From positions 8,426 through 72,425 of the forward strand of contig CALWRH010000008.1 of the NCBI GenBank assembly GCA_944383895.1: a stretch of 64,000 bases of DNA, written 5' to 3'. The notes below the pieces were generated by a model, which ran no database searches, was not told the origin of the DNA, and worked only from the letters and a program-made list of their open reading frames with translations. This document shows, in pieces, positions 12,806-31,398 of this stretch. Both the position numbers and the translations under genes were made by a program. Within the stretch, counting starts at the first letter, position 1. Every line of letters begins with the position of its first letter. The stretch is from an uncultured Christensenellaceae bacterium. Lineage in GTDB: Bacteria > Bacillota > Clostridia > Christensenellales > UBA3700.

Positions 12806-12822
12806 CAATATTTTTCATGCAA

Positions 12823-15416: not shown

Positions 15417-16439
15417 ATGAGTATATTGACTATAGGTGAAATAATGCTCAGGCTCCAGCCGTTCGGATACAAGAGATTCGCACAGGCTGAGGCATACGAG
15501 GCGGTATACGGCGGCGGAGAGGCAAATGTGGCGGTATCGCTCGCTCAGTTCGGAGAGGATGTGGCGTGCTTTACCAGATTGCCCGAAAATCCGATCGCGG
15601 ACAGGTGTATAGGAGAGCTCCGCAGATACGGCGTAGATACAAAAAAGATAGTACGCGGCGGAGAGAGGATGGGTATATATTTCTGTGAAAAAGGCTGTTC
15701 GCAAAGACCAAGCAACGTCATCTACGACAGAGCTCACAGCGCGATGAGCGAGATAGAGCCCGAAGACGTTGACGTCGACAAACTTCTTAGCGGCGTAGAG
15801 TGGCTGCATTGGACGGGTATAACCCCCGCTATTTCGGATAAGACCGCAAAAGTTCTCGGGATCATACTCGACGCGGCAAAGGCAAAGAACATAACCGTTT
15901 CGTGCGACCTCAATTTCCGCAAAAAACTGTGGAGCAAACAGAAAGCCAACGAAGTCATGTCAAAACTTGTCAAGACGGTTGATGTGCTCATCAGCAACGA
16001 AGAGGACTGCAAGGACGTTTTCGGTATAGAGGCCGACGACAGCAACATCAGCGGCGGTAAACTCAATAAAGAAGGTTACGAGGCTCTCGGCGCGAAAGTT
16101 CTCGATAAGTTCCCGTCACTCAAAGGCATAGCGTTCACGCTCCGCGAGAGTTACAGCGCGAGCCGCAACGGCTGGTCTGCCGTTTACGTTACGAGAAAGG
16201 CGGTTTACGAGAGCAAACATTACGATATAGACATCGTGGACAGAGTAGGCGGCGGCGACAGTTTCGGCGCGGGACTCATTTACGGACTCAAGAACGGCCT
16301 CGGAGAGCAGGCTGCGCTCGAATTCGCCGTGGCGGCGTCTTGTCTTAAACACACGGTTGAAGGAGATTTCAACGTTACTTCGGTAGCGGAAGTGAAAAAA
16401 CTCGCGGAGGGCGACGGCAGTGGTAGAGTACAGAGATAA
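15417..16439 (+). CDS. kdgK: 2-dehydro-3-deoxygluconokinase (PfkB family)
   Basis: 340 aa. GGGEANVAVSLAQFG N-terminal motif and DRVGGGDSFGAGLIYG ATP-site motif. Confidence 0.85.
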   Translation: MSILTIGEIMLRLQPFGYKRFAQAEAYEAVYGGGEANVAVSLAQFGEDVACFTRLPENPIADRCIGELRRYGVDTKKIVRGGERMGIYFCEKGCSQRPSNVIYDRAHSAMSEIEPEDVDVDKLLSGVEWLHWTGITPAISDKTAKVLGIILDAAKAKNITVSCDLNFRKKLWSKQKANEVMSKLVKTVDVLISNEEDCKDVFGIEADDSNISGGKLNKEGYEALGAKVLDKFPSLKGIAFTLRESYSASRNGWSAVYVTRKAVYESKHYDIDIVDRVGGGDSFGAGLIYGLKNGLGEQAALEFAVAASCLKHTVEGDFNVTSVAEVKKLAEGDGSGRVQR

Positions 16440-16449
16440 CGTGATAAAA

Positions 16450-17790
16450 ATGCTCGGCTCGAAGCGCGCAGAAGAGATATACGCGGCTGTCAAGGATCTG
16501 CCGATTATAGACTATCATTGTCATCTTTCTCCCAAAGAGATCTACGAGGACAAGCCTTTCAGCGATATAGGCGAGATATGGCTCGCGGGCGATCATTATA
16601 AGTGGAGGCTCATGCGCGGCTACGACGTGGACGAGAAGTATATCACGGGAAACGCAAGCTGGGCTGAGAAGTTCGACAAGTTCGCGGAGGCGGTAGGTTA
16701 CGCTCTCGGCAATCCCGTAAAGGATTGGGTCGCGGCGGAACTGATGTTCTTTTTCGGGATCACGACTCCTCTCAATAAGGATACCGCTGAAGAGGTAAGA
16801 AAAAAGGCAAATGCCGTAATAAAAGAAAAAGGCATTTCTCCCCGCAAGCTCATAGAGAGCGCGAACGTAGAGTATATCGCTACGACAGACGATCCCTGCG
16901 ACAGTCTCGAGTGGCACGACAGGATCGCGAAAGAAGGGGCGCTCAAAGCAAAAGTCGCTCCCACGTTCAGAGTGGACAATCTCGTTTCTGTAGAGAAAGC
17001 AGATTATAATCAATATATAAATAAACTCGAAAAGGCGAGCGCTATAAAAATAGCTTGCCTCGGAGATTTTGAAAAAGCTGTAGAGAACAGGCTCGACTTC
17101 TTCGTCAGCCGCGGTTGCAGATTTTCCGATATCGGCGTTGCGGGTTTCCCGAAGTCGGTCGCGGAAAAGAAAGATGCCGAAGATATATTCGGACGCATCG
17201 TCGCGGGCAAAGAGGCTGCGGCGGACGAGATAAGCGCGCTCAAAGGTTATCTTTACGTCTTTCTTGCGGCGCAATACAAAAAGCGCGGCATAACCATGCA
17301 GATGCACCTTGCCGTTACCCGAAACTCCAACAGCGCTATGTTCGCAGAGTGCGGCGCGGACAGCGGTTTCGACTGCGTAGGAGACGCAATCGATACGGTA
17401 ACGCTCACGCGCGTTATAGATACGATGAATAAAAACGGCGGACTGCCCGAGACGATAATCTACACTCTCAATCCGTCTATGTATTATACGCTCATAACGA
17501 TGATAGGCGCGTTCAGAGGAGTTCACCTCGGCGTAAGCTGGTGGTTCTGCGATCACAAGCGCGGCATGAGAGAAACTTTCGACAGACTTTCCGAGCTCGG
17601 ACATATCTGTTCTCTCATAGGTATGCTGACGGACAGCAGGAGTTTCCTTTCTTATACAAGACACGACTATTACAGACAGTGCCTTTGCGATTTCCTGGCG
17701 GACAACTCGTCCGAGAGAGACGGAGACGCGCCCGTAGAAGTAGCAAAGAAACTGTGTTATTATAACGCTAAAAAACTTTTGGAGGGTTGA
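16450..17790 (+). CDS. uxaC: glucuronate isomerase
   Basis: Hallmark PIIDYHCHLSPKEIYEDKPF and length typical of UxaC. ATG at 16450 is preferred because it follows the kdgK stop. Confidence 0.95.
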   Translation: MLGSKRAEEIYAAVKDLPIIDYHCHLSPKEIYEDKPFSDIGEIWLAGDHYKWRLMRGYDVDEKYITGNASWAEKFDKFAEAVGYALGNPVKDWVAAELMFFFGITTPLNKDTAEEVRKKANAVIKEKGISPRKLIESANVEYIATTDDPCDSLEWHDRIAKEGALKAKVAPTFRVDNLVSVEKADYNQYINKLEKASAIKIACLGDFEKAVENRLDFFVSRGCRFSDIGVAGFPKSVAEKKDAEDIFGRIVAGKEAAADEISALKGYLYVFLAAQYKKRGITMQMHLAVTRNSNSAMFAECGADSGFDCVGDAIDTVTLTRVIDTMNKNGGLPETIIYTLNPSMYYTLITMIGAFRGVHLGVSWWFCDHKRGMRETFDRLSELGHICSLIGMLTDSRSFLSYTRHDYYRQCLCDFLADNSSERDGDAPVEVAKKLCYYNAKKLLEG

Positions 17791-17792
17791 AT

Positions 17793-18842
17793 ATGGCATT
17801 TAAGATGACTTTCAGATGGTACGGCGAAAACGACAAAGTCACGCTCGACGACATCAGACAGATCCCGTGCGTTCAGGGTGTGGTATCGGCGATTTACGAT
17901 ACGCCTGTCGGCGAGGTCTGGTCCGAAGAGAGCATCGCTAGGCTTAAGAAGCTCGCAAACGACAAAGGACTGACGTTCGAAGTCGTAGAAAGCGTGCCCG
18001 TACACGAGGACATAAAGCTCGGCAACGAAAACGCTGCCAGACTTATCGAGAACTATAAAGAAAACGTAAGGCGTCTCGGCAAAGCGGGAGTAAAGTGCAT
18101 ATGCTACAACTTCATGCCTGTATTCGACTGGCTGAGAAGCAATCTTGCAAAAGAACTTCCCGACGGCTCCAACGCGCTCGCATACGATCACGAAACCGTG
18201 CTGGCGATGAACCCGCTCACGAGCGAGCTCTCTCTGCCCGGCTGGGACGCGAGCTATACGAGAGAAGGACTCAAAGAACTGCTCGAGCAGTATAAAGACA
18301 TCGACGACGAAAAACTCTGGCAGAACATGACGGTATTCCTCAAAGAGGTGATACCTGTCGCTGAGGAGAGCGGCGTCAAGATGGCTATACACCCCGACGA
18401 TCCGCCGTGGGGTATTTTCGGACTGCCGAGAGTTATAATCGACGAAAAGAATCTCAAGAGATTCTTGTCCATAGTCGACAGCCCCAGCAACGGCATTACG
18501 CTTTGCACGGGTTCGCTCGGAGTAAATCCGATGAACAACCTCGTATCCATGATAAAGACCTGCAAGGGAAGGATGCCTTTCGTTCACCTGCGCAACATCA
18601 AAATCACGGGCGACCACTGTTTCGAAGAGAGCGGACATCTCAGCGAAAAAGGCAGCCTCGATATGTACGAGATCATAAAGGCTCTGTACGACGGCGGTTT
18701 CGACGGTTACGTCCGTCCCGACCACGGCAGGATGATCTGGGGAGAAACGGGCAGAGCGGGTTACGGTCTGTACGACCGCGCGCTCGGTGCGATGTATCTC
18801 CAGGGCATAATCGAAGCGGTAGAAAAGGGCGCGAAGAAGTGA
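17793..18842 (+). CDS. uxuA: mannonate dehydratase
   Basis: MAFKMTFRWYGENDKVTLDDIRQIP is the typical UxuA N-terminus. SD GGAGGG upstream. Confidence 0.95.
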   Translation: MAFKMTFRWYGENDKVTLDDIRQIPCVQGVVSAIYDTPVGEVWSEESIARLKKLANDKGLTFEVVESVPVHEDIKLGNENAARLIENYKENVRRLGKAGVKCICYNFMPVFDWLRSNLAKELPDGSNALAYDHETVLAMNPLTSELSLPGWDASYTREGLKELLEQYKDIDDEKLWQNMTVFLKEVIPVAEESGVKMAIHPDDPPWGIFGLPRVIIDEKNLKRFLSIVDSPSNGITLCTGSLGVNPMNNLVSMIKTCKGRMPFVHLRNIKITGDHCFEESGHLSEKGSLDMYEIIKALYDGGFDGYVRPDHGRMIWGETGRAGYGLYDRALGAMYLQGIIEAVEKGAKK

Positions 18843-18906: not shown

Positions 18907-19740
18907 ATGTCGGTCTATAAAGACAAAGTGGTAGTCATTACCGGTGCAGGCGGTATCCTGTGCAGCGAGATAGCGAAAGAATACGCAAAGTGCGGCGCTA
19001 AGATAGCCGTGCTCGACCTCAATCTCGACGCGGCTCAGAAAGTTGCGGACGAAATCGTAGCTGACGGCGGCATTGCAAAGGCTTATAAAGTAAACTGCCT
19101 CGAAAAAGAAAGCATGGAAGAGGCGAGAGTTGCGATAAACAAAGATCTCGGCAAATGCGACCTTCTCGTAAACGGAGCGGGCGGCAACAATCCCAAGGGC
19201 ACTACCACCAACGACTATTTCGATATGGCGGATGTAGAGAACCCCGACGTCAAGAGTTTCTTCGACCTTGACGGCAGCGGCGTGGATTTCGTCTTCAAAC
19301 TCAACTTCCTCGCAACTTTCCTGACCACTCAGGTATTTGCAAAGGATATGGTAGAAAGAGGCGGCAACATAATAAACATTTCCTCTATGAACGCTTTCAG
19401 ACCTCTTACGAGAATACCCGCATACAGCGGCGCTAAGGCTGCGGTAAGCAACTTTACGCAGTGGCTCGCGGTACACTTCGCAAAGGCAGGCATAAGAGTC
19501 AACGCGATAGCTCCCGGTTTCTTCGTGACCAATCAGAACAGAGCTCTTCTGTTCAACCCCGACGGAACTCCGTCTGCACGCGCAGAGAAGATCCTGAGAG
19601 GTACTCCGATGGGAAGATTCGGTGAGGCGAAAGAGCTTATGGGCACTATGCTCTGGCTCGCGGACGACGAAAAAGCAGGTTTCGTTACCGGTATAGTCGT
19701 TCCTATCGACGGCGGTTTCTCCGCTTATTCCGGAGTCTGA
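18907..19740 (+). CDS. SDR-family oxidoreductase, probably D-mannonate oxidoreductase (YjmF/UxuB-like)
   Basis: TGAGGILC Rossmann motif and the YSGAKAAV catalytic Tyr-Lys. The operon position completes the UxaC-UxuB-UxuA route. Substrate assignment is by context. Confidence 0.7.
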   Translation: MSVYKDKVVVITGAGGILCSEIAKEYAKCGAKIAVLDLNLDAAQKVADEIVADGGIAKAYKVNCLEKESMEEARVAINKDLGKCDLLVNGAGGNNPKGTTTNDYFDMADVENPDVKSFFDLDGSGVDFVFKLNFLATFLTTQVFAKDMVERGGNIINISSMNAFRPLTRIPAYSGAKAAVSNFTQWLAVHFAKAGIRVNAIAPGFFVTNQNRALLFNPDGTPSARAEKILRGTPMGRFGEAKELMGTMLWLADDEKAGFVTGIVVPIDGGFSAYSGV

Positions 19741-19760
19741 TCAAAGGCAGGTAAGGAATT

Positions 19761-21038
19761 ATGAGTACGGTTGCGGTTTTGGGGCTCGGTAACAGAGGCA
19801 AGAATTACGGCGGGCATCTCAACAAGCTCGAAGGCGTAAAGATAGTAAGCATCTGCGATAAATATCAGGCTAAGATAGACAATGTGAAAAAGGCGTGGAA
19901 CGTGCCCGACGACAAGTGCTTTACCGACGAAGACAAGTTCTTCGCGCAGGGCAAGATCGCCGACGTCATGGTCATTGCCACGCAGGACAGAGATCACTAC
20001 GGACACGCTATAAAGGCGCTCAATCTCGGATACAATCTGTTGCTTGAAAAACCCGTCAGCCCCGATATCAGAGAGTGCCTCGAAATAGAGAAACTTGCGA
20101 GAGAAAAGGGTCTGAAAGTTCTAGTGTGCCACGTTCTCCGTTATGCTAACTACTATCGCAGGATAAAGCAGATAATAGACAGCGGAGTGCTGGGAGAGAT
20201 CAAACTCATCAAGCACGACGAGCATATCTCCTGGTGGCATTTCTGCCACAGCTACGTCAGAGGCAACTGGCGCAGAGAAGAGGACACGACCCCTATGCTG
20301 CTTGCAAAATGCTGTCACGATATGGACCTTTTGTATTGGTTTGCGGGATCCAAGTGCAAGAGCCTGTCTTCTTACGGAGAACTGAGTTATTTCACCAAGG
20401 CTAACGCTCCCAAAGGCGCTACGGCGACCTGCTTTGACTGTCCGCATAAGGACAAGTGCATATTCGAGTGCGAATATCAGTATGTCGGCAGAGGCGGAAA
20501 ACACAACAAATTCCCGTGGGGAACGTATGCGTTCTGCACTACGGGCAAGAAAAAGGACGTCATCGAAGAGCTCAAAAACGGAGAAAGAGGTAAGCTCTGG
20601 TCGAGATGCGTATTCGGTTGCGACAACGACGTGGTCGATTGTCAGACGGTCAATATGGAGATGGAGAACGGCGTCAAAATAGTCATGACGGCAAACGCTT
20701 TCAACGAGAAAGACCACAGACATACCGAGATAAGAGGTACAAAAGGCGAACTCGTTGCGGACGACAGCGGCAGCGTCATAACTCTCAAGTTGTTCGACAA
20801 GAAACCCAAGAAGATAATAGTCAACATCATCCCCGTCATAAAAGGTCATTACGGCGGCGACCAGGGCATAACCAAAGCAACTGCGGATATGCTTGCGGGC
20901 AGACTCGATCCCAAAGGTCAGTATACATGGATAAAGGATACGATAGAGAGCCACCGCATAGTTACCGCGGCGGAGCTGTCCAGAAAGAACGGCGGACGCA
21001 AAGTCGACATGACGGAGATACCCGATATAGAAAAATAA
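19761..21038 (+). CDS. Gfo/Idh/MocA-family oxidoreductase with Cys-rich insertion
   Basis: N-terminal Rossmann VAVLGLGNRGKNYG and the EKP motif (LLLEKPVS). A ~70-residue insert carries CFDCPHKDKCIFEC and CVFGCDNDVVDC. Confidence 0.85.
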   Translation: MSTVAVLGLGNRGKNYGGHLNKLEGVKIVSICDKYQAKIDNVKKAWNVPDDKCFTDEDKFFAQGKIADVMVIATQDRDHYGHAIKALNLGYNLLLEKPVSPDIRECLEIEKLAREKGLKVLVCHVLRYANYYRRIKQIIDSGVLGEIKLIKHDEHISWWHFCHSYVRGNWRREEDTTPMLLAKCCHDMDLLYWFAGSKCKSLSSYGELSYFTKANAPKGATATCFDCPHKDKCIFECEYQYVGRGGKHNKFPWGTYAFCTTGKKKDVIEELKNGERGKLWSRCVFGCDNDVVDCQTVNMEMENGVKIVMTANAFNEKDHRHTEIRGTKGELVADDSGSVITLKLFDKKPKKIIVNIIPVIKGHYGGDQGITKATADMLAGRLDPKGQYTWIKDTIESHRIVTAAELSRKNGGRKVDMTEIPDIEK

Positions 21039-21039
21039 T

Positions 21040-21492
21040 ATGCTCACTTTGATTGACGGCAGGTTCGTACTTGAAAGAAAGGATCAGAGCACGCATTACA
21101 AAATACCCTTCAGCGTGCCGTGCGGCGTAAAAAAGTTACATATCACAGTCGCCTACGATCCAAAATACAACTACGACGAAGAATACGGACTTGCGCTTAT
21201 AAAAGAGAGCATGATGAAACAGGCGGGAGAACCGCTGATGTCGGAGGGAGAGATGCGTGCAAGACTTCCTCTCGACAATCACCTGTCCTTTTCTCTCGAT
21301 TCGCCTTGCGGGGCGGTCGGAACGGCGCACAGGGGCAATAACAGACAGAATTTCACTATAAGCGCGGACAATGCCGACGGCGGCTTTTATCCGTGCGAAA
21401 TAAAGAGCGGCGACTGGACGTTTATAATAAGCGTGACGTGTATAATAACGGATAACATAACGGTATCGCTCAAGATAGAGGCGGAGCAATGA
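21040..21492 (+). CDS. hypothetical protein (150 aa), coupled to the PHP gene
   Basis: Starts 2 nt after the upstream stop, and its own stop overlaps the next ATG (CAATGAG). No motif recognised. Confidence 0.6.
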   Translation: MLTLIDGRFVLERKDQSTHYKIPFSVPCGVKKLHITVAYDPKYNYDEEYGLALIKESMMKQAGEPLMSEGEMRARLPLDNHLSFSLDSPCGAVGTAHRGNNRQNFTISADNADGGFYPCEIKSGDWTFIISVTCIITDNITVSLKIEAEQ

Positions 21493-22454
21493 GATATTTC
21501 AGGTGCGAACTGCATACTCATACGACTTCGTCCGACGGAAAGATGACGCCAGAGGAGCTCGTTGACAGAGCAGTAGAGTGCGGATACGACGCTATCGCTT
21601 TGACCGATCACAACACTGTCGCAGGCGTAGAGCGAGCGGTAAAAGCAGGCGAAAGGCGCGGGCTTACCGTGCTGAAAGGCATAGAGTGGACTACCTTCTG
21701 GGGACACTTTACAGTCATAGGCGGAGGCAGCGACGTGCTTTGGAGAGATATAACTCCCGATAACGTCGACGCGATGATTGCAAGGGCGCAGAGTAAAGGC
21801 GACATAGTAACGATAGCTCATCCGAGGCGCATGGGATATCCGCTGTGTTCGGGATGCCATTGCGATTACGATATAGAAAAACTGACGGGCGCGGACAATT
21901 ACGAGATATGGTCGCACTACTATCCCAACGAGGGAGTTGCGGCGCGACAGCAGAAAGAGCAGTGGTATTCATTGCTTGAGAGAGGACTCAAAATAACTGC
22001 GGTCTACGGCTACGATTGGCACAACCGCGACGATTTGCCGCCGTCTTACGCATATACTTATGTCGGGACGGAAAGCAACAGGGCGCAGGACATAATCGAG
22101 GGTCTGAAACGCGGAGCGACTTACGTTACGATAGGCGTAAAAGTGGATTGCAAGGCGATTTCGGACGGCAAAGAATACTGTATCGGAAGCACGCTCGAGA
22201 GCGGAAAAAGCGCGGTCTTTACGCTCAGATGCGACAGAATAGAGGATTACCGCTCGGACAAACCCGAGAGGCTGACGAGAGTGGAATTTCATACCGCGGA
22301 AGGCGTTACCTGCCTGCCGATAGAGTTCGGCAAAAAGGTGCAGACAGAAATCACGCCCGCAAAATTCTGCGTGGTCGAGATATACGGAATAAGAAACAGA
22401 CAAGAGCAACTGCTCGCGGTAACGGGAGCGTTTTATACGGGAGGAAACAGATGA
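21489..22454 (+). CDS. PHP-domain metallo-phosphoesterase (CehA/McbA-like)
   Basis: CELHTHTTSSDG and IALTDHNT are PHP His/Asp metal motifs. 321 aa. Confidence 0.8.
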   Translation: MRYFRCELHTHTTSSDGKMTPEELVDRAVECGYDAIALTDHNTVAGVERAVKAGERRGLTVLKGIEWTTFWGHFTVIGGGSDVLWRDITPDNVDAMIARAQSKGDIVTIAHPRRMGYPLCSGCHCDYDIEKLTGADNYEIWSHYYPNEGVAARQQKEQWYSLLERGLKITAVYGYDWHNRDDLPPSYAYTYVGTESNRAQDIIEGLKRGATYVTIGVKVDCKAISDGKEYCIGSTLESGKSAVFTLRCDRIEDYRSDKPERLTRVEFHTAEGVTCLPIEFGKKVQTEITPAKFCVVEIYGIRNRQEQLLAVTGAFYTGGNR

Positions 22455-23104
22455 TCACGGCACACGGCGGCGCGCTGGGAACGGGGCGCAACTCAAAAAT
22501 CTACTTTGAGAACATAAGCACTTTCAAAGCAGACGCCATAGAAGTCGACGTGCACAGGCGCGGAGGCTTGCTGTATCTGAGTCATCTGCCCGCGCTTTTT
22601 ACATACAGAAAGAAGATAACTCTCGCACAGGCGTTCGCGTTTGCGAAAAAGAATAACGTCAAGATCAACTGCGATCTCAAGGGCAAAGGGCTTGTACCCG
22701 ACGTCATAAAGCTTGCTAAAGAGATGGAAGTAACCGATCTGCTGATATTCACGGGGTCTGTCAGACTTACCGACAGCGAAGTCCTTACCGAGGGCGAGGC
22801 GTGGGTAAACAGAATAAAAGGACTTCCGTACAAGGCGAAGAACGTCGCAAAGATAAAAAAGGCGCTCGACGATACGAAGAATCCGCATTTTGCAGGACTC
22901 AATATCAACAAAATGTATGCGAGCGACGCCTTTCTCGCAGAGTGCAGAAAGTACGGCGTAAAGCTGTCCATATTCACGGTAGACAGCTATAAAGAATTAA
23001 AAAGGCTGGTTCCTATGGAACCTGCCAACATAACGACAAACTATCCCGTCGTGGCGTCTACGATAAGGTTCGAAACGTTGCAGGCGGAAAAGGAGAAGAA
23101 ATGA
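22451..23104 (+). CDS. glycerophosphodiester phosphodiesterase (GDPD) family protein
   Basis: MITAHGGALGTGRN...ADAIEVDVH matches the GDPD N-terminal catalytic pattern. The ATG overlaps the PHP stop (ATGA). The track's 22016 start is an extension. Confidence 0.8.
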   Translation: MITAHGGALGTGRNSKIYFENISTFKADAIEVDVHRRGGLLYLSHLPALFTYRKKITLAQAFAFAKKNNVKINCDLKGKGLVPDVIKLAKEMEVTDLLIFTGSVRLTDSEVLTEGEAWVNRIKGLPYKAKNVAKIKKALDDTKNPHFAGLNINKMYASDAFLAECRKYGVKLSIFTVDSYKELKRLVPMEPANITTNYPVVASTIRFETLQAEKEKK

Positions 23105-24243
23105 TCAGGGTTGCGATAGTCGGCATAGGCAGGATGGGCGGAAGACATGCGTCCAATTTCTGCAAAGGCGCCGTAAAAAACGCAAAGCTCGCCGCAGTCT
23201 GCGATATCGACGAAAAGGTGCTTTCCGCATTTAAGAACAGACATGCGGGAGTCGCGACGTACACCGATTTCGATAAAATGCTCGAAGAGGTAAAGCCGGA
23301 CGCAGTGATAGTCGCAACGCCGCATTATTCTCACGTCGGGCTTGCCGTAAAAGCGATTGAAAAGAATATAAGCGTACTCGTGGAAAAGCCGATCTCCGTC
23401 ACCGTCAAGGAGGCAGAAAAACTCGTAGAAGTCGCAAAGGCTCACAAAGATGCGGTTTTTGCGATAATGTACAATCAGCGCAGCAACAGCATTTACGCGA
23501 GGGCGAAAAAGATCATAGAGAGCGGTAAACTCGGCGATCTTCAGAGAGCGTCGTTTACCGTAACGGATTGGTACAGGACGCAGTATTACTATAATATGGG
23601 CGGCTGGAGAGCAAGCTGGTCGGGAGAGGGCGGAGGTACGCTCATCAACCAGTGCGTGCATCAGCTCGACATACTGCAATGGCTGCTCGGTATGCCCGAA
23701 AAGATAGTTGCGAGATGCAAGACGTCGGGCAGGAACATATCGACGGAAAACGACGTGACCGCATTGTTTTCTTATAAGAATTACGATTGCGTGTTTACAG
23801 CGTCCACTCACGAATTGCCGGGAGAGAACCGTTTTGTCATAGTCGGCTCGAAAGGAACTCTCGTTATAACGAGGCATATGGCGGTATGCAAGTACCTTAA
23901 GATGGACGAAAAAGAAGTCAACGCGAGGGCAAAGCGCGATTACGGCAACAGAGCGGATAAAAAATATACGACAAAGCGCATGTTTTACGGGCTCGGCAAC
24001 TATATAACGGACGCACTTTACGGGCAGCAATGCAACATACTTCGCGGCTTTGCCGCCGCAGTTGAGAAAAAGGACGCGTCGCTGCTCAGAGCACGCGGAG
24101 AAGAGGGACTGAACGCGCTGAACATCATAAACGCAATAAATATGTCGGCGTGGAAAGGGGAAGGCGTAGACGTACCCGTCGATCCCGATGAATACGAAAA
24201 AATGCTTTCAGAAAAAATAGAGAGCGAGAAAAAGATAAAGTAA
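23101..24243 (+). CDS. Gfo/Idh/MocA-family oxidoreductase
   Basis: MIRVAIVGIGRMGGRH Rossmann, VLVEKP, WYRTQYYYNMGGWRASWSGEGGGTLINQCVHQLD. Paralogous to 25217..26380. Confidence 0.85.
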   Translation: MIRVAIVGIGRMGGRHASNFCKGAVKNAKLAAVCDIDEKVLSAFKNRHAGVATYTDFDKMLEEVKPDAVIVATPHYSHVGLAVKAIEKNISVLVEKPISVTVKEAEKLVEVAKAHKDAVFAIMYNQRSNSIYARAKKIIESGKLGDLQRASFTVTDWYRTQYYYNMGGWRASWSGEGGGTLINQCVHQLDILQWLLGMPEKIVARCKTSGRNISTENDVTALFSYKNYDCVFTASTHELPGENRFVIVGSKGTLVITRHMAVCKYLKMDEKEVNARAKRDYGNRADKKYTTKRMFYGLGNYITDALYGQQCNILRGFAAAVEKKDASLLRARGEEGLNALNIINAINMSAWKGEGVDVPVDPDEYEKMLSEKIESEKKIK

Positions 24244-24269
24244 ATGCCGTTGAGGAGGATATAAAATTT

Positions 24270-25217
24270 ATGGCAAACATCAAGATTTCAGGTTTTTACG
24301 ACGAAGTCAGTTCTAATCTGGACGAACAGATCAAGTTGATCAAAGAATTCGGCGAAAGCTATCTCTGTCCGAGAGTGGTGGACGGCAAGAATATCGCCAA
24401 CTATACTGCTCAGGAGTTTCAGAGCGTAATCAAGCCGCGTCTTGACAACGCAGGCATAAAATTCTCCTCTATAGGTTCGCCTATAGGCAAGATCGGACTT
24501 TACGATGACGAGGCATACGAGGCGCAGCTCGCAAAACTCAAAGAGCTCGTCAAAATATGCAAGTATATGGACTGCAAATACATAAGGATGTTCTCTTTCA
24601 GAGTAAAGGCAAACGGAGATTACAAGGCGTATTTCCCCGAAGTCGTCAAGAAACTTCGCGGGTTCCTCAAAGTGGTCGAGGGTACGGACGTTATTCTTCT
24701 GCACGAGAACGAAAAGAGAATTTACGGCGACACTCCCGAGAGATGTCTCGAGCTTTACAAGGAGATCAACCATCCTCAGTTCCAGCTCGCTTTCGACGCG
24801 TCCAACTTTATACAGTGCGGAGTGAACGTTCCGAAAGCTTACGAAATGCTCAAAGATTACGTCGTTTACTATCATATCAAGGATTGCTCTCCCGAAAAGG
24901 TGGAAGTCCCCGTAGGACTCGGCCTCGGCAACTACAAAGAGATGATAAAAGATCTTATAGTAAACCGCAAGTACGACGGCTTTATGACGCTTGAGCCTCA
25001 CACAGGCAAATACGCAGATCACAAAAAGCTGTTCTATATCTTCGGTTGGTTTACCTGGATGCTGCCTTACGTCGGCAAATGGAACAAGGTCTTCAAGCGT
25101 ATCAATGCGGCAAAGGGCATAGCTCCCATGCAGACGGTCACGAGAAAGGACATCTTCACCTGGCAGTATCAGGGACTCAAAGAAATAATCGACGAAGTCG
25201 AAAAGGAGAATAAATAA
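24270..25217 (+). CDS. xylose-isomerase-like TIM-barrel protein (sugar phosphate isomerase/epimerase family)
   Basis: 315 aa. The pattern YIRMFSF...ILLHENE...AFDASNF...HIKD...TLEPH is typical of AP-endonuclease-2/xylose-isomerase-like barrels. Confidence 0.8.
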   Translation: MANIKISGFYDEVSSNLDEQIKLIKEFGESYLCPRVVDGKNIANYTAQEFQSVIKPRLDNAGIKFSSIGSPIGKIGLYDDEAYEAQLAKLKELVKICKYMDCKYIRMFSFRVKANGDYKAYFPEVVKKLRGFLKVVEGTDVILLHENEKRIYGDTPERCLELYKEINHPQFQLAFDASNFIQCGVNVPKAYEMLKDYVVYYHIKDCSPEKVEVPVGLGLGNYKEMIKDLIVNRKYDGFMTLEPHTGKYADHKKLFYIFGWFTWMLPYVGKWNKVFKRINAAKGIAPMQTVTRKDIFTWQYQGLKEIIDEVEKENK

Positions 25218-26380
25218 TGAATAAGGTCAGATACGGTATTGTCGGCATTGGCAAACAGGGCAGCAATTACGCAAAAAGACTTTTCAAGGGCATGGACAAG
25301 AACGGTCAGATCGCCGCTGTATGCGATATAGCGGAAGACCGCAGAAAGTGGGCTGAAACCGCGCTTCCCGGCGTAAAAGTCTTCAGCGATTATAAAGAAA
25401 TGTTTGCCAGCAAACTTATCGATGCGGTCATCATAGACACTCCTCACTACGCGCATCCGACGATCGCGATCGACGCGCTCAAGGCAGGACTTCACGTTCT
25501 CAGCGACAAGCCCGCAGGCGTGTTTACAAAGGCTGTAAGAGAGGCGGCGGAATTCGGCAAGACGAAACCCGAGCTCAAGTTCGGACTCCTGTACAACCAG
25601 CGCACGAACAAGGTATATAAAAAGGCTAAAGAGATCATCGAGTCGGGAAGACTCGGCAACCTCAAGCGCATCGTCTGGATAATCACCAACTGGTACCGTC
25701 CGCAGGCGTACTACGATCAGGGCGGATGGAGAGGCACCTGGGCAGGAGAAGGCGGCGGCGTACTTATCAACCAGGATCCGCATCAGCTCGACCTGTTCAC
25801 ATGGCTTGCAGGCACTCCTATCAAAAAGGTTTGGAGCAACGCTAAGACAGTCGGCAGAAAGATCAACGTAGAAAACGACGTTACCGCCGTATGCGAATTC
25901 GAAAACGGCGCAACGGGCGTATTCATCACGTCCACTCACGACGCTCCCGGCACCAACAGACTCGAGATCACCGGCGACGGAGGCAAGATAGTCATCGAGG
26001 GCAACAACGACGTCAGCATGAAACTCAGGTTTACCGAAAACAGCGTGCCAGAACCCGAATTTTCCAAGACTAACAAAGTGTTCATGGGCAAGATCCCCAA
26101 CAAGGTATCCAAATACAAGCTGGGTCTTGTCGATATAATAAAGGGTATAATCGAGCAGCAGCACATAGTCGTTATCCGCAACTTCTCAGAAGTCGTTCTC
26201 GGCAAGACGGACAAGCTCGTGGCTCCGTACAGCGACGGACTCAACGGTCTCGGATTCTCCAACGCTATACATCTTTCCGCATGGACGGGCAAAGAGGTCG
26301 TATATCCGCTCGACGAGGATCTCTATATCAAAGAGCTCGACAAGAGGATAGAAGAAGAGAAAAAGTCCAGCGTAAAGTAA
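25217..26380 (+). CDS. Gfo/Idh/MocA-family oxidoreductase
   Basis: VRYGIVGIGKQGSNY, VLSDKP, WYRPQAYYDQGGWRGTWAGEGGGVLINQDPHQLD. The start overlaps the upstream stop. Confidence 0.85.
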   Translation: MNKVRYGIVGIGKQGSNYAKRLFKGMDKNGQIAAVCDIAEDRRKWAETALPGVKVFSDYKEMFASKLIDAVIIDTPHYAHPTIAIDALKAGLHVLSDKPAGVFTKAVREAAEFGKTKPELKFGLLYNQRTNKVYKKAKEIIESGRLGNLKRIVWIITNWYRPQAYYDQGGWRGTWAGEGGGVLINQDPHQLDLFTWLAGTPIKKVWSNAKTVGRKINVENDVTAVCEFENGATGVFITSTHDAPGTNRLEITGDGGKIVIEGNNDVSMKLRFTENSVPEPEFSKTNKVFMGKIPNKVSKYKLGLVDIIKGIIEQQHIVVIRNFSEVVLGKTDKLVAPYSDGLNGLGFSNAIHLSAWTGKEVVYPLDEDLYIKELDKRIEEEKKSSVK

Positions 26381-26402
26381 GGCGAGGGATAAGGAGAAAA
26401 AT

Positions 26403-28337
26403 ATGAATTACAAACTCAAAGCCGGCAAAATCATCACTACCGGCAAAATGCACGAAAGAGCGTTTTACGACGTCAGCAACAACCGTATCACGGCGCAGTT
26501 CGACGGCAGAGGAGGTATCTCCAAATATGCCGTAATGAACAAGTTTTCCGTGTTCACCAATTATTATTCGATGTATACGGTAGACGGCGTGCCTTTCGAT
26601 TACATGGAAGACAAGGTGGTCACGATGGAAGGCAAAAAGCAGATCACCGAGATCGAACATGAAAAATGCAGGCTCAGGATCACGCAGTTCCTCGACAACG
26701 AGAGCAATGCGATATTCGTAGAAACTGCCGTAGAGGCAAAGTGCGATCTGACTTTCGACAACACCGTAAATTACGGCGTTAATTACGAAAGTTACGTTCA
26801 GCAGCTGCTTGCAAACAGACTCAGTCCCAAGACGATCGCGACAGTGCTCACGGGCTTTATCAAGAGCAAGAAGAACGGTCTGACTTTCAACGGACAAAGC
26901 GCGAAACTGCACGGCGACGTGCTCGGCGATTTTTATCTCGACTTTGCCATCAGCGAAGGCGCGCAGGCGGGCGAGGCAGAAAGAGGATTCCACAATCAGT
27001 TCTCTTACGGCGCGAAACTCCGCGCCGGCGAAGTGAGAAAGTTCAGATACGTCGTAAGCGCGGGTACGAGAAACGATTTTACCTTCTGCGACGTCATGGA
27101 TGCGCTCGGCAGGTTCGACAGCGCGCTCAAAGAGGCGGACAAGTATATCGAGAGTCTTTCTTGCCCTGCGTGCGTTAAAGGCGACGATTTTATGGAAACC
27201 TATTACAAGTCGCTTATCAACTGCAGTCTTTCCAACTATAAAGAGCTCGGCAAATTCAAGGGATTCCTTGCAGGCATAGTATATCAGTTTCCCGCGAGAA
27301 CGTATTATCGCGACGCGTATTGGACGGTGCTTTCCGTACTTCCGGTAAGACCCGAACTCGTCCGCAACGAGATCGTCACGCTTGCCAACGGCATCAACAA
27401 AAAAGGCGAGTGCCCGAGCGCGGTAAAATTCAACTTCAAGAATTATTGGGGCAACCATTACGATTCGCCGTCTTTCTTCGTAGCGATGATCTACGATTAC
27501 GTCGTACACACGGGCGATATCGGCGTGCTTAAAGAAGAGTGCGCGTGCGGTACCATAATCGAGGCGGCAAAACTCGTGCTCGACAGACTGGAAGAAGAAA
27601 CCGACGCTACGGGTCTTCTCGTCAAGGGCGGAGAATACAACCGCCGCGACTGGTGCGACAACGTTTTCCGCAGCACTTACGTTACTTACGACGAGGCTCT
27701 GTATGCCCGCGCTCTGTTTGCTATGAGCGAACTCTGCGACGCGTGCGGTATGGACGGCAATTCTTATTATTCAAAGTATGTCAAAGTCAAAAAGGCTATC
27801 AACGACCTTCTCTGGGACGAAGAAAAAGGCTATTACGTCAACTACAAGAGCAAGAATTTCTGCGAGGACAACCTGTCTATAGATACCGTCGTAGCAGTGC
27901 TTTTCGGCATCGCGGACGAAGAGAGATCCAAGCGAGTTCTCAAGAATATGGAAAAAATGCTCGAGTCGAAGAACAACAAAGAGCAGAGAGCGGGCGACTT
28001 CGGTACGCTCAGCGTATATCCGTTCTACAAGAACACCAAGGACATCGTGCAGAAATCTTCTTTGCCGTATTATTATCACAACGGCGGCGATTGGCCGTAT
28101 CTCTCATGCGTTTACGCTTATGCTAAGCTTATGTACGGCATGGATTACAAATATCCGCTCACGAGATGGTTCGAGTACAATCTCGATCAGGGCAATTATA
28201 CTCCCGTTGAGTTCTTCAGCCCGATACATCCGCAGGGCTCGTTGCTTCAGGCATGGTCGAGCACGGGTGCGTTCGTGCTTTCGTACATCGACGGCAACTT
28301 CTTCCGCAAACAGATCGCGGATAAACGCGTTAAATAA
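26403..28337 (+). CDS. six-hairpin (alpha/alpha)6 glycoside hydrolase, GDE_C/GH63-like
   Basis: 644 aa, no signal peptide. ARTYYRDAYWT, RRDWCDNVFRSTYVTYDEALYARAL and YYYHNGGDWPY resemble amylo-alpha-1,6-glucosidase/GH63-type catalytic domains. Family assignment is by eye only. Confidence 0.7.
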   Translation: MNYKLKAGKIITTGKMHERAFYDVSNNRITAQFDGRGGISKYAVMNKFSVFTNYYSMYTVDGVPFDYMEDKVVTMEGKKQITEIEHEKCRLRITQFLDNESNAIFVETAVEAKCDLTFDNTVNYGVNYESYVQQLLANRLSPKTIATVLTGFIKSKKNGLTFNGQSAKLHGDVLGDFYLDFAISEGAQAGEAERGFHNQFSYGAKLRAGEVRKFRYVVSAGTRNDFTFCDVMDALGRFDSALKEADKYIESLSCPACVKGDDFMETYYKSLINCSLSNYKELGKFKGFLAGIVYQFPARTYYRDAYWTVLSVLPVRPELVRNEIVTLANGINKKGECPSAVKFNFKNYWGNHYDSPSFFVAMIYDYVVHTGDIGVLKEECACGTIIEAAKLVLDRLEEETDATGLLVKGGEYNRRDWCDNVFRSTYVTYDEALYARALFAMSELCDACGMDGNSYYSKYVKVKKAINDLLWDEEKGYYVNYKSKNFCEDNLSIDTVVAVLFGIADEERSKRVLKNMEKMLESKNNKEQRAGDFGTLSVYPFYKNTKDIVQKSSLPYYYHNGGDWPYLSCVYAYAKLMYGMDYKYPLTRWFEYNLDQGNYTPVEFFSPIHPQGSLLQAWSSTGAFVLSYIDGNFFRKQIADKRVK

Positions 28338-28411: not shown

Positions 28412-29986
28412 GTGGAAGACACGACAAACACCATCGATCAGGCAGGCACCCACGGAGGTGCTGTCGGAGAGGAAATTCTGAGTTCTGAAGACCAAAAGCT
28501 CATAAATCAGAAATTCCTCAAACCCAGAGATTACATACTGTTCTCTCTTGCGAGATTCGCAAGCAGTGCGGTAACGGGTCTCGTACAGGGTTATTTGCTG
28601 TTTTATTATACTGCGTGTATGGGCATTTCTCCGACTGCTGTCGGTACGATGTTCCTTATCACAAAGATCTTCGACGGACTCAATGACCCTGTAATGGGTA
28701 TCATCGTCGACAGAACGCGCACGAGATGGGGAAAAATGCGCCCGTATCTGGTGTTCGGCGCAGTGCCGTGGGCAGTAGTAACTATATTATTGTTCTGGCC
28801 TATTTCAAGTTGGAGCAGCGCCGGAAAAATAGTATGGATGTACATTACATATATCATGTACGACATTACGGGTACTATAGTAGGCGTTCCTCTTGACGGT
28901 ATGCCGGCAGTTGCGTCCCCGAATATGGACGAGCGTTCCAAGATCATTTCGATAAGCCGTATCCTCGGTTCTATCGGAGAGCAGTCCGCGCTTGTTCTTA
29001 TTTCGCTCGGTCTTATTCTTACAAACGACGACTATGCCAACACATATTTTGTCGTTGCGATCATCATCGGCATCCTCGGACCTCTGTTCATGGTCCTCGG
29101 CGGCGTAAGAGTCAAGGAAAGATGCGAACCTACCGAAACCACTCCGAGTCTTCTCGAAGGTTTCAAATACCTGTTCAAGAACAAACCGTTCTTGCTGCTT
29201 ATATTGTCCAACCTTCTGACGTTCTTCAGAAACCTCGTCAGTGCGGCAATAATGTACGTCGTTGCGTACATTTACAGCAACGGTTCATTGCAGATAGCGT
29301 TTGCTTTGCCGGGTGCTATCGCGTCAATGATAGGTATGTTGTTCGCGCCTAAACTCAAGCGCATGATGGACTCTAAAAAGCTGTTCATATTCGCAACGGT
29401 ATGGCACTCAGCGGCACTCGCTCTGATATTCTTTATATATATCATCGGCGGTACGAATTGGATACTTATCGCGGCGCTTATGTTCTTTGCAATGCTCCCC
29501 GTAGGCGTGCTCAACGTCGTTCCGCACCTTATGGCAACGGATACGCTCGACTATTGGGAAGACAAGTGCGGAGAACGTCTTGAAGGCATTACCTTCTCGC
29601 TTATGAGCTTGAGAAGTAAAGTTTCTTCAGGTTTCAAGGATTACTTCCTTTCATGGCTCCTTGCGTTCTTCCTGTTTGCTCAGCCGCTGTCCTTCCTTTC
29701 GGATCACAAGCCGGAGCAGACTGAATTTACCAAGATGGGATTGTTCATGATATTCACGATAATCCCTGCGATCACGAACCTTATTTCTATCGTTCCGATG
29801 TTGTTCTACAACCTTTCGGGCAAGAAGATGGCGCTTATCGAAGCAAGACTTGCGCATAAGAGAAAAGCGGAATACGACGCTAAAATGGCAGAACAAGCAG
29901 CTCTCGAAGGCGTGACCGAAGTTACGGCTGTCGTAGAAGAAGACGTAACGGTTCAGATCTCCGAAACCGAAGAAAAGGGGGAATAA
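28412..29986 (+). CDS. GPH-family (glycoside-pentoside-hexuronide) cation symporter
   Basis: DGLNDPVMGIIVDRTRTRWGKMRPY signature and about 12 TM helices. GTG start with SD GGGAGG. The family includes MelB and the glucuronide carrier GusB/UidB. Confidence 0.9.
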   Translation: MEDTTNTIDQAGTHGGAVGEEILSSEDQKLINQKFLKPRDYILFSLARFASSAVTGLVQGYLLFYYTACMGISPTAVGTMFLITKIFDGLNDPVMGIIVDRTRTRWGKMRPYLVFGAVPWAVVTILLFWPISSWSSAGKIVWMYITYIMYDITGTIVGVPLDGMPAVASPNMDERSKIISISRILGSIGEQSALVLISLGLILTNDDYANTYFVVAIIIGILGPLFMVLGGVRVKERCEPTETTPSLLEGFKYLFKNKPFLLLILSNLLTFFRNLVSAAIMYVVAYIYSNGSLQIAFALPGAIASMIGMLFAPKLKRMMDSKKLFIFATVWHSAALALIFFIYIIGGTNWILIAALMFFAMLPVGVLNVVPHLMATDTLDYWEDKCGERLEGITFSLMSLRSKVSSGFKDYFLSWLLAFFLFAQPLSFLSDHKPEQTEFTKMGLFMIFTIIPAITNLISIVPMLFYNLSGKKMALIEARLAHKRKAEYDAKMAEQAALEGVTEVTAVVEEDVTVQISETEEKGE

Positions 29987-29990: not shown

Positions 29991-31241
29991 ATGAAAAAGA
30001 AATATCTTATTTTATCTGCGGTAATTATTCTGACGGTAATTCTCGGCGTGATGTTTACGGGTTGTTCTCAGACAGAAGACGAGTATTATGCCGAAATGTA
30101 CGAGGATATAAAAGAGTTCAATACTCAGTACGGCAAGATACTCGACAACCTGTATAAAGCAAACTTCTCCGTAAGTTTCGATTTCAACACGCACTACAAC
30201 GCGTCGATAGAGAGAGGAACGGAAAACGAAAAAGGCTGGGACGCTTTTGAAAAGGCTTATAACGATTTCTATGAGTCAATAGGTATTCAGGATCCGAATT
30301 TCTTCGAAAAGCTTTTCGGTTCAAAGAGCGACGCTCAGAAGAATATAAACAGTTACAACTTCCAGACCAACGCCTGGATGGACGTTTATACTAAGGTCGA
30401 ATATAAGCAGAACGGCAGCAAAGATTTTTATCTCAAAGTAACCACTTATCCCGCTATATGGGAGAACTACTACGATTCACTTCTCGACGCTATCGAAGAT
30501 GAAAACGCTATAAAAGAAGGCAGAGAAAAACTCGAGAAGAAAGACGATAAAAACAACGTCGTATGGGACGTGGTCGAGGCTACTATTGCAGGCAAGACCG
30601 AAACCGTGATCAGAGTTACCGACGGCAAGGATGCAAACGGCAACGAGTACGACGGTATAGAAATGCTTTCTTCGATCGTAGGCATAGTTACAGGCGAAAT
30701 GCCCACTGACGACATCTACACCTTCAATAACGGCAACAAGATCTACACCAACGTTATGCAGGCGCAGTATATCACGGCATACAAGCTCACAGAAGAAACT
30801 CAGATAAAATATCCCGAAATCGACGCTCCGGACTATGGCACAAAAGAGTGGGAAGCGTTTGTCAACGGTATGCCCCAAATACTCTCGTCCTGGAACGCGA
30901 CCGCAAACACTATCTTTATGAACAACCTTGCGGCTATGGACGAATCTCTGCGAGTCGGATTGGAAGATAACGTCGACGAAAAATATTGGAGCAAGTTCGG
31001 AGAAGACGTTGTATATGATTGGGAAGAAGTAGGAGCAATGAAGCTCACGCGTTATACATACAACTACAACAAAAAGCACTCAAAATTAGAGCAGATCGAC
31101 TATTATGTCGAATACGTCAAACCGTATTTTACCGAAAAGAGTGCGGCAGACTCTAAACTCGAACTCAAAGGTGACGTTTATTATAAAACTCACATCGTTG
31201 CCGATTTCGAATATTCCGATTCTGCCATCAAACTTCCCTGA
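29991..31241 (+). CDS. lipoprotein of unknown function, last gene of the sugar operon
   Basis: MKKKYLILSAVIILTVILGVMFTGC lipobox. It starts 4 nt after the symporter stop. 416 aa, acidic, with no SBP motif I recognise. Confidence 0.8.
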   Translation: MKKKYLILSAVIILTVILGVMFTGCSQTEDEYYAEMYEDIKEFNTQYGKILDNLYKANFSVSFDFNTHYNASIERGTENEKGWDAFEKAYNDFYESIGIQDPNFFEKLFGSKSDAQKNINSYNFQTNAWMDVYTKVEYKQNGSKDFYLKVTTYPAIWENYYDSLLDAIEDENAIKEGREKLEKKDDKNNVVWDVVEATIAGKTETVIRVTDGKDANGNEYDGIEMLSSIVGIVTGEMPTDDIYTFNNGNKIYTNVMQAQYITAYKLTEETQIKYPEIDAPDYGTKEWEAFVNGMPQILSSWNATANTIFMNNLAAMDESLRVGLEDNVDEKYWSKFGEDVVYDWEEVGAMKLTRYTYNYNKKHSKLEQIDYYVEYVKPYFTEKSAADSKLELKGDVYYKTHIVADFEYSDSAIKLP

Positions 31242-31269
31242 AACCCTTCGGATTGAAAACGAAGACAGA

Positions 31270-31297
31270 GAAGGAGCCGCGTGCTCCTTCTTTTTTT
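31270..31297 (+). terminator. rho-independent terminator ending the 16-gene operon
   Basis: GAAGGAGC-CGCGT-GCTCCTTC followed by TTTTTTT. Confidence 0.85.
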
Positions 31298-31398
31298 GTT
31301 TGATAAAGCATATCCGAGAGAAAAATACGTTTGTTAACGGCGTAAACGGTTTGACAACGACTTACTTATGTATAATAATTAGTACGAGGAAAACTGCT

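Follow-up and report, generated by a model that had tools for sequence, protein, structure and literature searches.

Why would a bacterium encode three sugar oxidoreductases, a xylose-isomerase-like barrel and two putative phosphoesterases next to its genes for glucuronate catabolism? This question is raised by a stretch of 64,000 nucleotides (here called the window, and numbered from its first letter) from an uncultured Christensenellaceae bacterium (NCBI GenBank assembly GCA_944383895.1, contig CALWRH010000008.1, positions 8,426 to 72,425 of the forward strand). An original prediction, made from the letters of the window, singled out the seven-gene block at 19761-26380 as a system that may open a glucuronide non-hydrolytically. 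The locus is probably a single long operon of a gut Christensenellaceae in the order eda-kdgK-uxaC-uxuA-uxuB-gfo1-orf150-php-p217-gfo2-tim-gfo3-gh644-gph-lipoprotein, under the control of an AraC-family regulator. Within it, homology identifies the products of gfo3 and tim as the counterparts of Oxido1 and Iso1 of the glucuronide-cleaving system P2B11. The core cleavage chemistry has been known since 2024, and the locus is a composite, not one novel pathway.

A probable glucuronide-cleaving pair

P2B11 is a human gut fosmid from a Gram-positive bacterium of unknown identity that carries four genes in the order Iso1-Oxido1-Oxido2-Iso2 (Nasseri et al., bioRxiv 10.1101/2024.03.25.586180). The set cleaves alpha- and beta-(thio)glucuronides in vitro in a manganese- or cobalt-dependent manner. 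The chemistry was resolved on the homologous AL and BT enzymes as C3 oxidation, 1,2-elimination by a 'sugar phosphate isomerase' barrel, hydration and reduction; a transporter or regulator near P2B11 was not noted (bioRxiv 10.1101/2024.03.25.586180). Two adjacent genes of the window correspond to this system, one of them encoding a triosephosphate isomerase (TIM) barrel:

24270-25217, + strand: TIM barrel, xylose-isomerase-like as originally predicted (Pfam AP_endonuc_2); putative 3-keto-glucuronide lyase/hydratase
25217-26380, + strand: Gfo3, a Gfo/Idh/MocA oxidoreductase; by sequence an orthologue of P2B11 Oxido1 (glucuronide 3-dehydrogenase)

Residues 1-386 of Gfo3 align with residues 1-397 of PDB entry 8TDI ('P2B11 glucuronide-3-dehydrogenase') at 46% identity (E 6.1e-103). 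A seven-sequence alignment shows no change at the active-site residues N147, W179, R181, Y185, N205 and H209, whether in Gfo2, in Gfo3 or in their orthologues. For the barrel, the Iso1 proteins of two P2B11-like loci served as stand-ins for P2B11 Iso1, and the window protein is 46-48% identical to them. In the first locus (L075, Fusicatenibacter), Oxido1 is 78% identical to 8TDI and the published order Iso1-Oxido1-Oxido2-Iso2 is reproduced. In the second (L077), Oxido1 is 69% identical to 8TDI, an AraC gene lies upstream and uxaC follows directly after Iso2. The only PDB sequence match of the barrel was AsbF (E 3e-6).

Genomic context was surveyed with a genome scan anchored on the Gfo3 family, which yielded 80 loci. 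Of these 80, 39 have the TIM barrel gene next to an Oxido1 homologue and 32 have hexuronate genes no more than 10 kb away, and the pair is syntenic with uxaC, uxuA, uxuB, kdgK and eda in many Bacillota. The homology to Oxido1 and Iso1 and this synteny with glucuronate genes uphold, as a putative function, the predicted non-hydrolytic opening of a glucuronide that feeds UxaC, UxuB, UxuA, KdgK and Eda. What did not survive is the claim that no characterised pathway matches the block: its core maps onto P2B11 (in vitro, 2024), which was not among the iol, ycj and dgp systems named for comparison.

Besides the correspondence of Oxido1 with Gfo3 and of Iso1 with the TIM barrel, P2B11 and the window share a Gram-positive origin and the lack of a DUF1080 protein. 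Both would be expected to act on alpha- or beta-glucuronides, in the sequence C3 oxidation, 1,2-elimination, hydration, reduction. The window differs in having an Oxido1-like paralogue (Gfo2) and an oxidoreductase with a Cys4 insert (Gfo1) in place of Iso2 and Oxido2. Its pair also forms part of a glucuronate operon that has a regulator and a transporter, and it is interspersed with PHP, GDPD-like, beta-sandwich and GH94-like genes, none of which P2B11 has. Literature searches on follow-up of 3-keto-glucuronide cleavage and on this gene combination found nothing beyond the 2024 preprint. The P2B11 study was reportedly published in Nature in 2024.

The two further oxidoreductases of the block are as follows:

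19761-21038, + strand: Gfo1, Gfo/Idh/MocA oxidoreductase with a Cys4 insert, 425 aa (Pfam)
23101-24243, + strand: Gfo2, Gfo/Idh/MocA oxidoreductase; sister clade of glucuronide 3-dehydrogenase, tied to the accessory module described below

Three Gfo/Idh/MocA proteins, two of them paralogous and one with a cysteine-rich insert, had been predicted, and Pfam and NCBIfam agree. The paralogues are Gfo2 and Gfo3 (40-42% identical). Gfo2 matches 8TDI at 36% identity (E 1.4e-72) and is nearer to Oxido1, with 35% identity over the full length, than to Oxido2, with 32-34% in partial alignments; it is best classed as an Oxido1-like paralogue, not as Oxido2. The Gfo proteins of the type B loci described below are 47-52% identical to Gfo2 and carry the signature NQCVHQLD, with the Oxido1/Gfo3 clade separate. 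In Gfo1, C224, C227, C233 and C283 are invariant across 20 homologues. Loci of types A and C contain Gfo1 together with GH644. Gfo1 was rejected as an anchor for the pathway, being not pathway-specific, because a family member at 44% identity stands alone in unrelated contexts.

The probable glucuronate operon

The regulator, the bounding sites and the catabolic genes upstream of the block are listed here:

13828-14595, - strand: AraC-family regulator, divergent from the operon (Pfam HTH_18, HTH_AraC, AraC_binding)
14664-14692, + strand: best sigma-70-like promoter match, upstream of eda (TTGAAA-17-TATAAT, 11 of 12 matches; a consensus match alone)
14768-15412, + strand: KDPG/KHG aldolase Eda (NCBIfam PRK06552, 286 bits against a cut-off of 238)
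15417-16439, + strand: PfkB-family 2-keto-3-deoxygluconate (KDG) kinase, KdgK-like (Pfam PfkB)
16420-17790, + strand: glucuronate isomerase UxaC (NCBIfam PRK02925, 485 bits against 387)
17787-18842, + strand: mannonate dehydratase UxuA (TIGR00695, 417 bits against 200)
18907-19740, + strand: short-chain dehydrogenase/reductase (SDR)-type D-mannonate oxidoreductase, UxuB function (NCBIfam PRK08277, 428 bits against 281)
31267-31293, + strand: terminator-like hairpin closing the operon (11-bp stem, then a T run; the only strong + strand site in 13.5-33 kb)

The operon spans about 14.7 to 31.3 kb and ends in a GPH symporter gene and a lipoprotein gene. Its 15 + strand genes are bracketed by one promoter-like site and one strong terminator. 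They are separated by gaps of 1-74 nt or overlap, and purine-rich stretches lie 5' of most starts. The gene for the AraC regulator keeps its position in L002, L009-L011 and L021. An Rfam scan of the operon found no riboswitch or other RNA.

The seven genes of the block are tightly packed and mostly overlapping, as had been described: all lie on the + strand, and overlaps are found at four of the six junctions (4 nt at three of them, 1 nt at one). The block had also been placed inside a hexuronate operon. It probably does belong to the same operon, but it lies downstream of the hexuronate genes and not within them. The same gene order recurs in more than 20 independent contigs at protein identities down to 50-60%, a conservation far beyond chance. 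Antisense - strand open reading frames (ORFs) of 300-390 aa (20121-21047, 23041-24030, 25169-26164, 26328-27509) shadow genes within 19700-27500 of the window. These are most likely compositional artefacts (the region has a strong AT skew, of +0.2).

Upstream of the block, the Uxa/Uxu pathway set is complete, with UxaC, a fructuronate/mannonate oxidoreductase, UxuA, a KdgK-like kinase and Eda. The equivalog-level scores assign these genes to the glucuronate-specific branch. For the KdgK-like protein, no NCBIfam match reached its cut-off; the best were to KDG/KDGal kinases and to the kinase portion of a fused aldolase/kinase. A KduD reading of the SDR, which would indicate the unsaturated-uronate route, was considered because one locus (L003) is without uxaC and uxuA. 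It was rejected, since the KduD model scores 134 bits against a cut-off of 339 and the mannonate oxidoreductase model 428.

A portable five-gene module

What, then, are the genes that surround the putative glucuronide-cleaving pair? The remaining features of the operon are these:

21040-21492, + strand: orf150, 150 aa; beta-sandwich partner of the PHP hydrolase, its stop overlapping the PHP start by 4 nt
21489-22454, + strand: PHP-fold metallohydrolase, CehA/McbA family (PF02811, 51.6 bits against 26.4)
22451-23104, + strand: p217, 217 aa; divergent GDPD-like barrel (profile match to a GDPD structure)
26403-28337, + strand: GH644, 644 aa; (alpha/alpha)6 enzyme with a GH94-like fold by AlphaFold2 (AF2) model and Foldseek
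28412-29986, + strand: GPH-family glycoside/hexuronide:cation symporter (TIGR00792, 280 bits against a cut-off of 231)
29991-31241, + strand: lipoprotein (signal peptide and Cys in a ...MFTGCS motif)

A metagenome scan was carried out with a GH644 profile, and all window proteins were mapped onto 169 loci, together with context look-ups. The following architectures were recognised:

Type A (the window and over 15 further loci): hexuronate genes, Gfo1, orf150-PHP (variable), p217, Gfo2, TIM, Gfo3, GH644, GPH, sometimes the lipoprotein
Type A' (L174): type A block behind an MFS_2 gene, without Gfo1 or nearby hexuronate genes
Type B (L088, L089, L106, L107, L110; L104 partial, with p217-Gfo2-GH644): orf150, PHP, p217, Gfo2, GH644
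Type C (L101/L100, L170): Gfo1, orf150, PHP, p217, TIM, GH644, GPH, lipoprotein; no Gfo2
Pair only (L102, L171, L172/L173): GH644 and GPH

The genes orf150, PHP, p217, Gfo2 and GH644 recur as a unit, and in L174 this unit is found with TIM/Gfo3 but with no hexuronate genes. These five genes form a separately conserved, portable module, and the P2B11-type TIM-Gfo3 pair is inserted inside it, between Gfo2 and GH644. The seven genes can no longer be regarded as a single module: orf150, PHP, p217 and Gfo2 go with GH644 and are separable from TIM/Gfo3. The orf150-PHP pair is missing from the type A loci L009-L011, L019, L090, L099 and L105.

No TIM, Gfo3, Gfo1 or uronate genes were found in the type B loci. 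Where their flanks are visible (L088, L089, L110), a GH20 hexosaminidase gene precedes the module, and a gene for a surface protein of 1200-1400 aa and two class II aldolase-like genes follow it. The aldolase genes are preceded by a xylulokinase-like FGGY kinase gene (L110) or a class III aminotransferase gene (L089), and an MFS_2 gene, encoding a GPH symporter, follows the aldolase genes in both. Citrate synthase is always encoded just upstream of this arrangement (e.g., L110:5204-20687).

Type C loci have a different attachment. In L170 (positions 1-4471) the module follows a partial iolB, iolD (862 bits against 715), iolE (391 against 290) and iolG (464 against 355), with one divergent PfkB-like gene between the iol genes and Gfo1. 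In L101 (756-2776) iolE-iolG have the same arrangement, and only these two iol genes are seen. L101 and L170 share 75-78% nucleotide identity and represent related but distinct species. One lineage thus joins the module to glucuronate catabolism, and another joins it to inositol catabolism.

GH644 is the largest protein of the module. Its AF2 model (predicted local distance difference test, pLDDT, 87; predicted template modelling score, pTM, 0.89) retrieved with Foldseek, as best matches, the GH94 inverting phosphorylases for cellobiose, chitobiose and cellobionic acid (template modelling, TM, score 0.74; 11-14% identity), followed by GH63 and GH116. The Pfam GH94 model scores 29.5 bits against a threshold of 27 and is overlapped by stronger matches to GDE_C (42) and trehalase (30.6). 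In a profile alignment to chitobiose phosphorylase, the invariant motif TYYR303D304 corresponds to 'GYRD' and RRDW417CD419 to 'RADWND'. R303 is thereby aligned with Arg349 and D419 with Asp492, which we take, from the GH94 literature, to be the phosphate-binding and the catalytic residue. GH644 may be a phosphorylase on this modelling, and a phosphorylase would supply the GDPD-like and PHP proteins with a phosphorylated substrate inside the cell. A word-indexed search placed the family in 341 clusters, nearly all labelled 'hypothetical' and the rest bearing generic automatic labels. Among 1.84 billion proteins, 119 representatives were found at E<=1e-30. A more distant paralogue adjoins a heparinase II/III-like lyase gene and a GH39-like gene (L119:5482-11746), a neighbourhood compatible with uronic-acid-containing glycans.

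The GPH symporter gene lies directly after GH644 in most loci, the pair-only loci included. This is the tightest linkage of GH644 and suggests that the enzyme acts on an imported glycoside. In two pair-only loci, GH644-GPH stands alone and is followed by genes for LPG_synthase_TM and a CDP-alcohol phosphatidyltransferase, which are lipid head-group enzymes (L172:13402-15186, L173:5396-7138); this may be coincidence. The lipoprotein, which may be a substrate-capture protein, has no family match in Pfam or NCBIfam. Lipoprotein genes also follow the GPH symporter gene in L002 (20204-21214) and L101 (12126-13085). The copies are only weakly alike, at their ends, which indicates a fast-evolving family.

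The 150-aa orphan of the original prediction is still one: orf150 has no Pfam or NCBIfam match, and a word-based homologue search found 17 close relatives only. Its AF2 model (pLDDT 86) is a beta-sandwich with two helices, for which Foldseek returned generic beta-sandwich matches alone (TM<0.5) and no specific PDB neighbour. In L012 (5716-7194) and L013 (5758-7239), one ORF of about 492 aa covers both orf150 and PHP. The two proteins therefore probably act together, as one enzyme, and orf150 is probably a partner or domain of the PHP enzyme. The PHP domain itself was called correctly (PF02811, NF038032), and the PHP-type residues E7, H9, H11, D16, D40, H41, E66, H73, H111, D176 and H178 are invariant in eight orthologues. 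The term 'phosphoesterase' was an assumption, because the full-length match (NF038032, residues 2-316, 188 bits against a cut-off of 80) is to the CehA/McbA metallohydrolases.

The GDPD phosphodiesterase of the original prediction holds as a superfamily assignment. A single p217 sequence falls under the Pfam GDPD (PF03009) threshold (14.8 bits against 23.6). A profile of ten orthologues matches the GDPD structure 2pz0 at E 4.9e-9 in three collinear segments, and Pfam GDPD matches five of the ten orthologues (best 1.6e-5). On this comparison p217 is placed in the GDPD superfamily. Its invariant residues are H5, R13, N14, E31, D33, H45, D75 and K77, so that both catalytic His, the E.D motif and the Lys are retained. 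Other motif residues are replaced: HRG has become HGG (loss of the phosphate-binding Arg), ENT has become GRN (loss of a metal-ligand Glu) and E.K has become D.K.

Proposed mechanism

How might these proteins work together? A glycoside containing glucuronic acid would be imported by the GPH symporter, perhaps with capture by the lipoprotein. Inside the cell, GH644 and the p217/PHP-orf150/Gfo2 set would trim it before or alongside the core step. GH644 would remove a sugar as a GH94-like glycoside phosphorylase or hydrolase, p217 and PHP could strip a phosphate-ester substituent or a sugar 1-phosphate product, and Gfo2, and also Gfo1, may be further sugar 3-dehydrogenases for a second linkage. 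By analogy with P2B11, Gfo3 would oxidise C3 of the glucuronide using tightly bound NAD. The metal-dependent TIM barrel would then eliminate the aglycone across C1-C2 and help to rehydrate the glycal, and reduction of the resulting 3-keto-glucuronate would restore D-glucuronate. From there to pyruvate and glyceraldehyde 3-phosphate, the path would run through UxaC, the SDR mannonate oxidoreductase, UxuA, KdgK and Eda. Strong homology argues for the oxidative cleavage to glucuronate and for the Uxa/Uxu breakdown steps, and synteny and fold suggest the import and trimming steps.

Several observations weigh against this reading. No window protein, the TIM barrel included, matches Iso2 at E<0.01, and an Oxido2 orthologue was also not found in the window, so that its catalytic set differs from the published P2B11 set. 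An identity of 46% to 8TDI is insufficient to fix substrate specificity. Conservation of the block next to uxaC and uxuA, proposed as a check, was found in many loci but not in all: L003 retains the block with no uxaC or uxuA nearby, and none of the hexuronate genes is seen near the L174 block. It is fold and synteny that suggest the roles given here to Gfo1, orf150, PHP, p217, Gfo2 and GH644. To our knowledge, GPH symporters do not carry phosphorylated solutes. Import by GPH for this reason fits a phosphodiester substrate badly, unless phosphate is added inside the cell by phosphorolysis.

Alternative explanations

Could the genes from gfo1 to the lipoprotein instead make up a single pathway that acts on glycosyl-inositol(-phosphate) head groups, for example the glucuronic acid (GlcA)-alpha1,2-inositol-phosphate core of plant and fungal glycosylinositol phosphorylceramide (GIPC) sphingolipids, or on related inositol glycosides? 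In such a pathway, p217 would act like a GDPD or phosphatidylinositol-specific phospholipase C (PI-PLC) on the inositol phosphodiester, PHP would remove the (cyclic) phosphate and GH644 an outer sugar. Gfo3 and the TIM barrel would then cut the glucuronosyl-inositol bond oxidatively, with glucuronate passing to Uxa/Uxu and inositol to iol genes elsewhere in the genome. We regard this as unlikely. The candidate, a GlcA-inositol-phosphate head group having also been named in the original prediction, is kept alive because the module is attached to iol genes in type C loci and contains a GDPD/PI-PLC-superfamily protein and a PHP hydrolase. L101 and L170 place the module directly after iol genes where type A loci have glucuronate genes, yet this adjacency is limited to one lineage and a divergent gene separates the two units. 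Type B loci have GH20, an FGGY kinase and class II aldolases in place of inositol or uronate genes, and a tblastn search with true IolE and IolG found no iolE or iolG in the 64-kb window. In favour of a phosphodiester substrate, p217 keeps both catalytic His and the N-terminal part of PHP has weak matches to cyclic-phosphate dihydrolase and bisphosphate phosphatase models. However, the GIPC phosphodiester is lipid-bound and all the enzymes are cytoplasmic, without signal peptides, and a phosphorylated solute is unlikely to enter through a GPH carrier. No paper describing a bacterial pathway for GIPC head groups was found in a full-text literature search. The broader idea is equally doubtful, namely that the portable module is an unrecognised bacterial route for dismantling glycosyl-inositol(-phosphate) head groups, to which lineages add catabolic genes for the product recovered (glucuronate genes with the P2B11-type pair, or iolB-D-E-G).

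The lack of Iso2 and Oxido2 in the window is also consistent with another role for the module. The p217 protein, PHP-orf150 or both might not be phosphoesterases but metal-dependent barrels recruited as a second lyase/hydratase (the role of Iso2 or DUF1080) for intermediates that Gfo2 makes (3-keto-glycosides or 2-hydroxy-3-keto-glycals). Type B loci have Gfo2 and no xylose-isomerase-like barrel, and always have p217 and PHP beside Gfo2. The p217 protein has lost the phosphate-binding Arg of HRG and one metal-ligand Glu, and known systems use unrelated folds at this step (a TIM barrel or DUF1080). Against this, the PHP-type His, Asp and Glu residues are all invariant, which is typical of hydrolases, and the seven type A loci listed above are without orf150 and PHP. 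We know of no GDPD- or PHP-fold enzyme that catalyses such a reaction, and the recruitment is considered improbable.

It is very improbable that the Gfo enzymes and the TIM barrel belong to an inositol or cyclitol (IolG/IolE/IolI-like), Ycj-like or C-glycoside (DgpA/B/C-like) pathway: iolG is the top or second NCBIfam match of all three Gfo proteins and DgpA structures are among their PDB matches, but the iolG model gives the Gfo proteins 73-117 bits where its cut-off is 355, the barrel does not match IolE, DgpA is matched at E 1e-13 to 1e-17 against 1e-103 for 8TDI, the operon has one barrel only and no IolD, IolB or IolC (no thiamine pyrophosphate enzyme, no KduI/IolB-fold gene) or DgpB/C pair, and the true IolE and IolG of L101 and L170 are encoded by genes separate from those for Gfo1 and the TIM barrel.

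Comparison with known systems

A glucuronate operon with a P2B11-type pair remains our preferred reading, and several described systems share parts of it. Bacteroides thetaiotaomicron BT2156-2160 and Alistipes AL1-3 follow the same reaction logic and use two folds also present here, that of a Gfo/Idh/MocA 3-dehydrogenase and that of a 'sugar phosphate isomerase' lyase. They differ in acting on glucosides, in using a DUF1080 hydratase and in having no link to uronate catabolism. The NCBIfam models BT_2158 and BT_2159 score 41-70 bits on the window proteins, against cut-offs of 650-750. Membership of the Iol, Dgp and BT2158/2159 families was rejected, since curated cut-offs were not reached or, for DgpA, matches were weak.

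The ycj operon of E. coli encodes the GH65 phosphorylase YcjT, the Gfo 3-dehydrogenase YcjS and the TIM-barrel epimerase YcjR, which act on kojibiose and glucosides. As the window may do, it brings together in a single sugar-utilisation operon a disaccharide phosphorylase of (alpha/alpha)6 fold, a xylose-isomerase-like barrel and a Gfo 3-dehydrogenase. It differs in that GH644 is GH94-like and not GH65, and in its substrates. No YcjS or YcjR structure was among the PDB matches. With the GH94 phosphorylases, GH644 shares an N-terminal beta-sandwich and the (alpha/alpha)6 architecture, but it is about 160 residues shorter and, as noted above, of low identity (11-14%). The acc operon of Agrobacterium encodes AccF, a GDPD-type agrocinopine phosphodiesterase, and the phosphatase AccG. 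It is a precedent for a GDPD-fold enzyme and a phosphatase acting together on a sugar phosphodiester, likened here by description only; the partner enzymes and the substrate class differ.

Genomic surroundings

An ENA gut-metagenome scaffold is identical to the window, and the nearest genomes are those of uncultured Christensenellaceae. Outside the operon, a GH38 alpha-mannosidase gene (window 5693-8635) lies 5 kb upstream of the regulator gene, and in L002 the same AraC gene has a GH38 and a GH2 beta-mannosidase gene immediately upstream. Between the GH38 gene and the AraC regulator gene of the window, the - strand encodes anaerobic ribonucleotide reductase NrdD and its radical-SAM activase (10348-13678). 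The operon is followed by a gene for an HMA-domain P-type ATPase (window 31105-33912). Such a gene also follows Iso2 in L075 (5000-7764), where it is split in two ORFs, possibly by a frameshift. This shared neighbour is probably a coincidence. Further downstream, a gene for a pyruvate-formate-lyase-like glycyl radical enzyme (53664-55985) has at its start a ZMP/ZTP riboswitch (window 53627-53707), which scores 53.9 bits where the gathering score is 39. The true start of this gene is probably later, because the riboswitch overlaps the start of the listed ORF.

Significance

The in vitro work on P2B11 showed that Gram-positive bacteria of the gut can remove glucuronic acid from conjugates without a classical beta-glucuronidase (GUS). 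A transporter, a regulator and a downstream pathway were missing from that picture. The operon described here and its relatives give a P2B11-type system a physiological setting, with glucuronate catabolism, an AraC regulator and a GPH symporter. Estimates of the microbial de-glucuronidation of drugs, hormones and dietary conjugates that count GUS enzymes only would be affected. The five-gene module is conserved and portable, and one of its proteins represents a small and uncharacterised (alpha/alpha)6 family. The glucuronate, inositol and GH20 genes with which the module is associated suggest that its natural substrate is complex.

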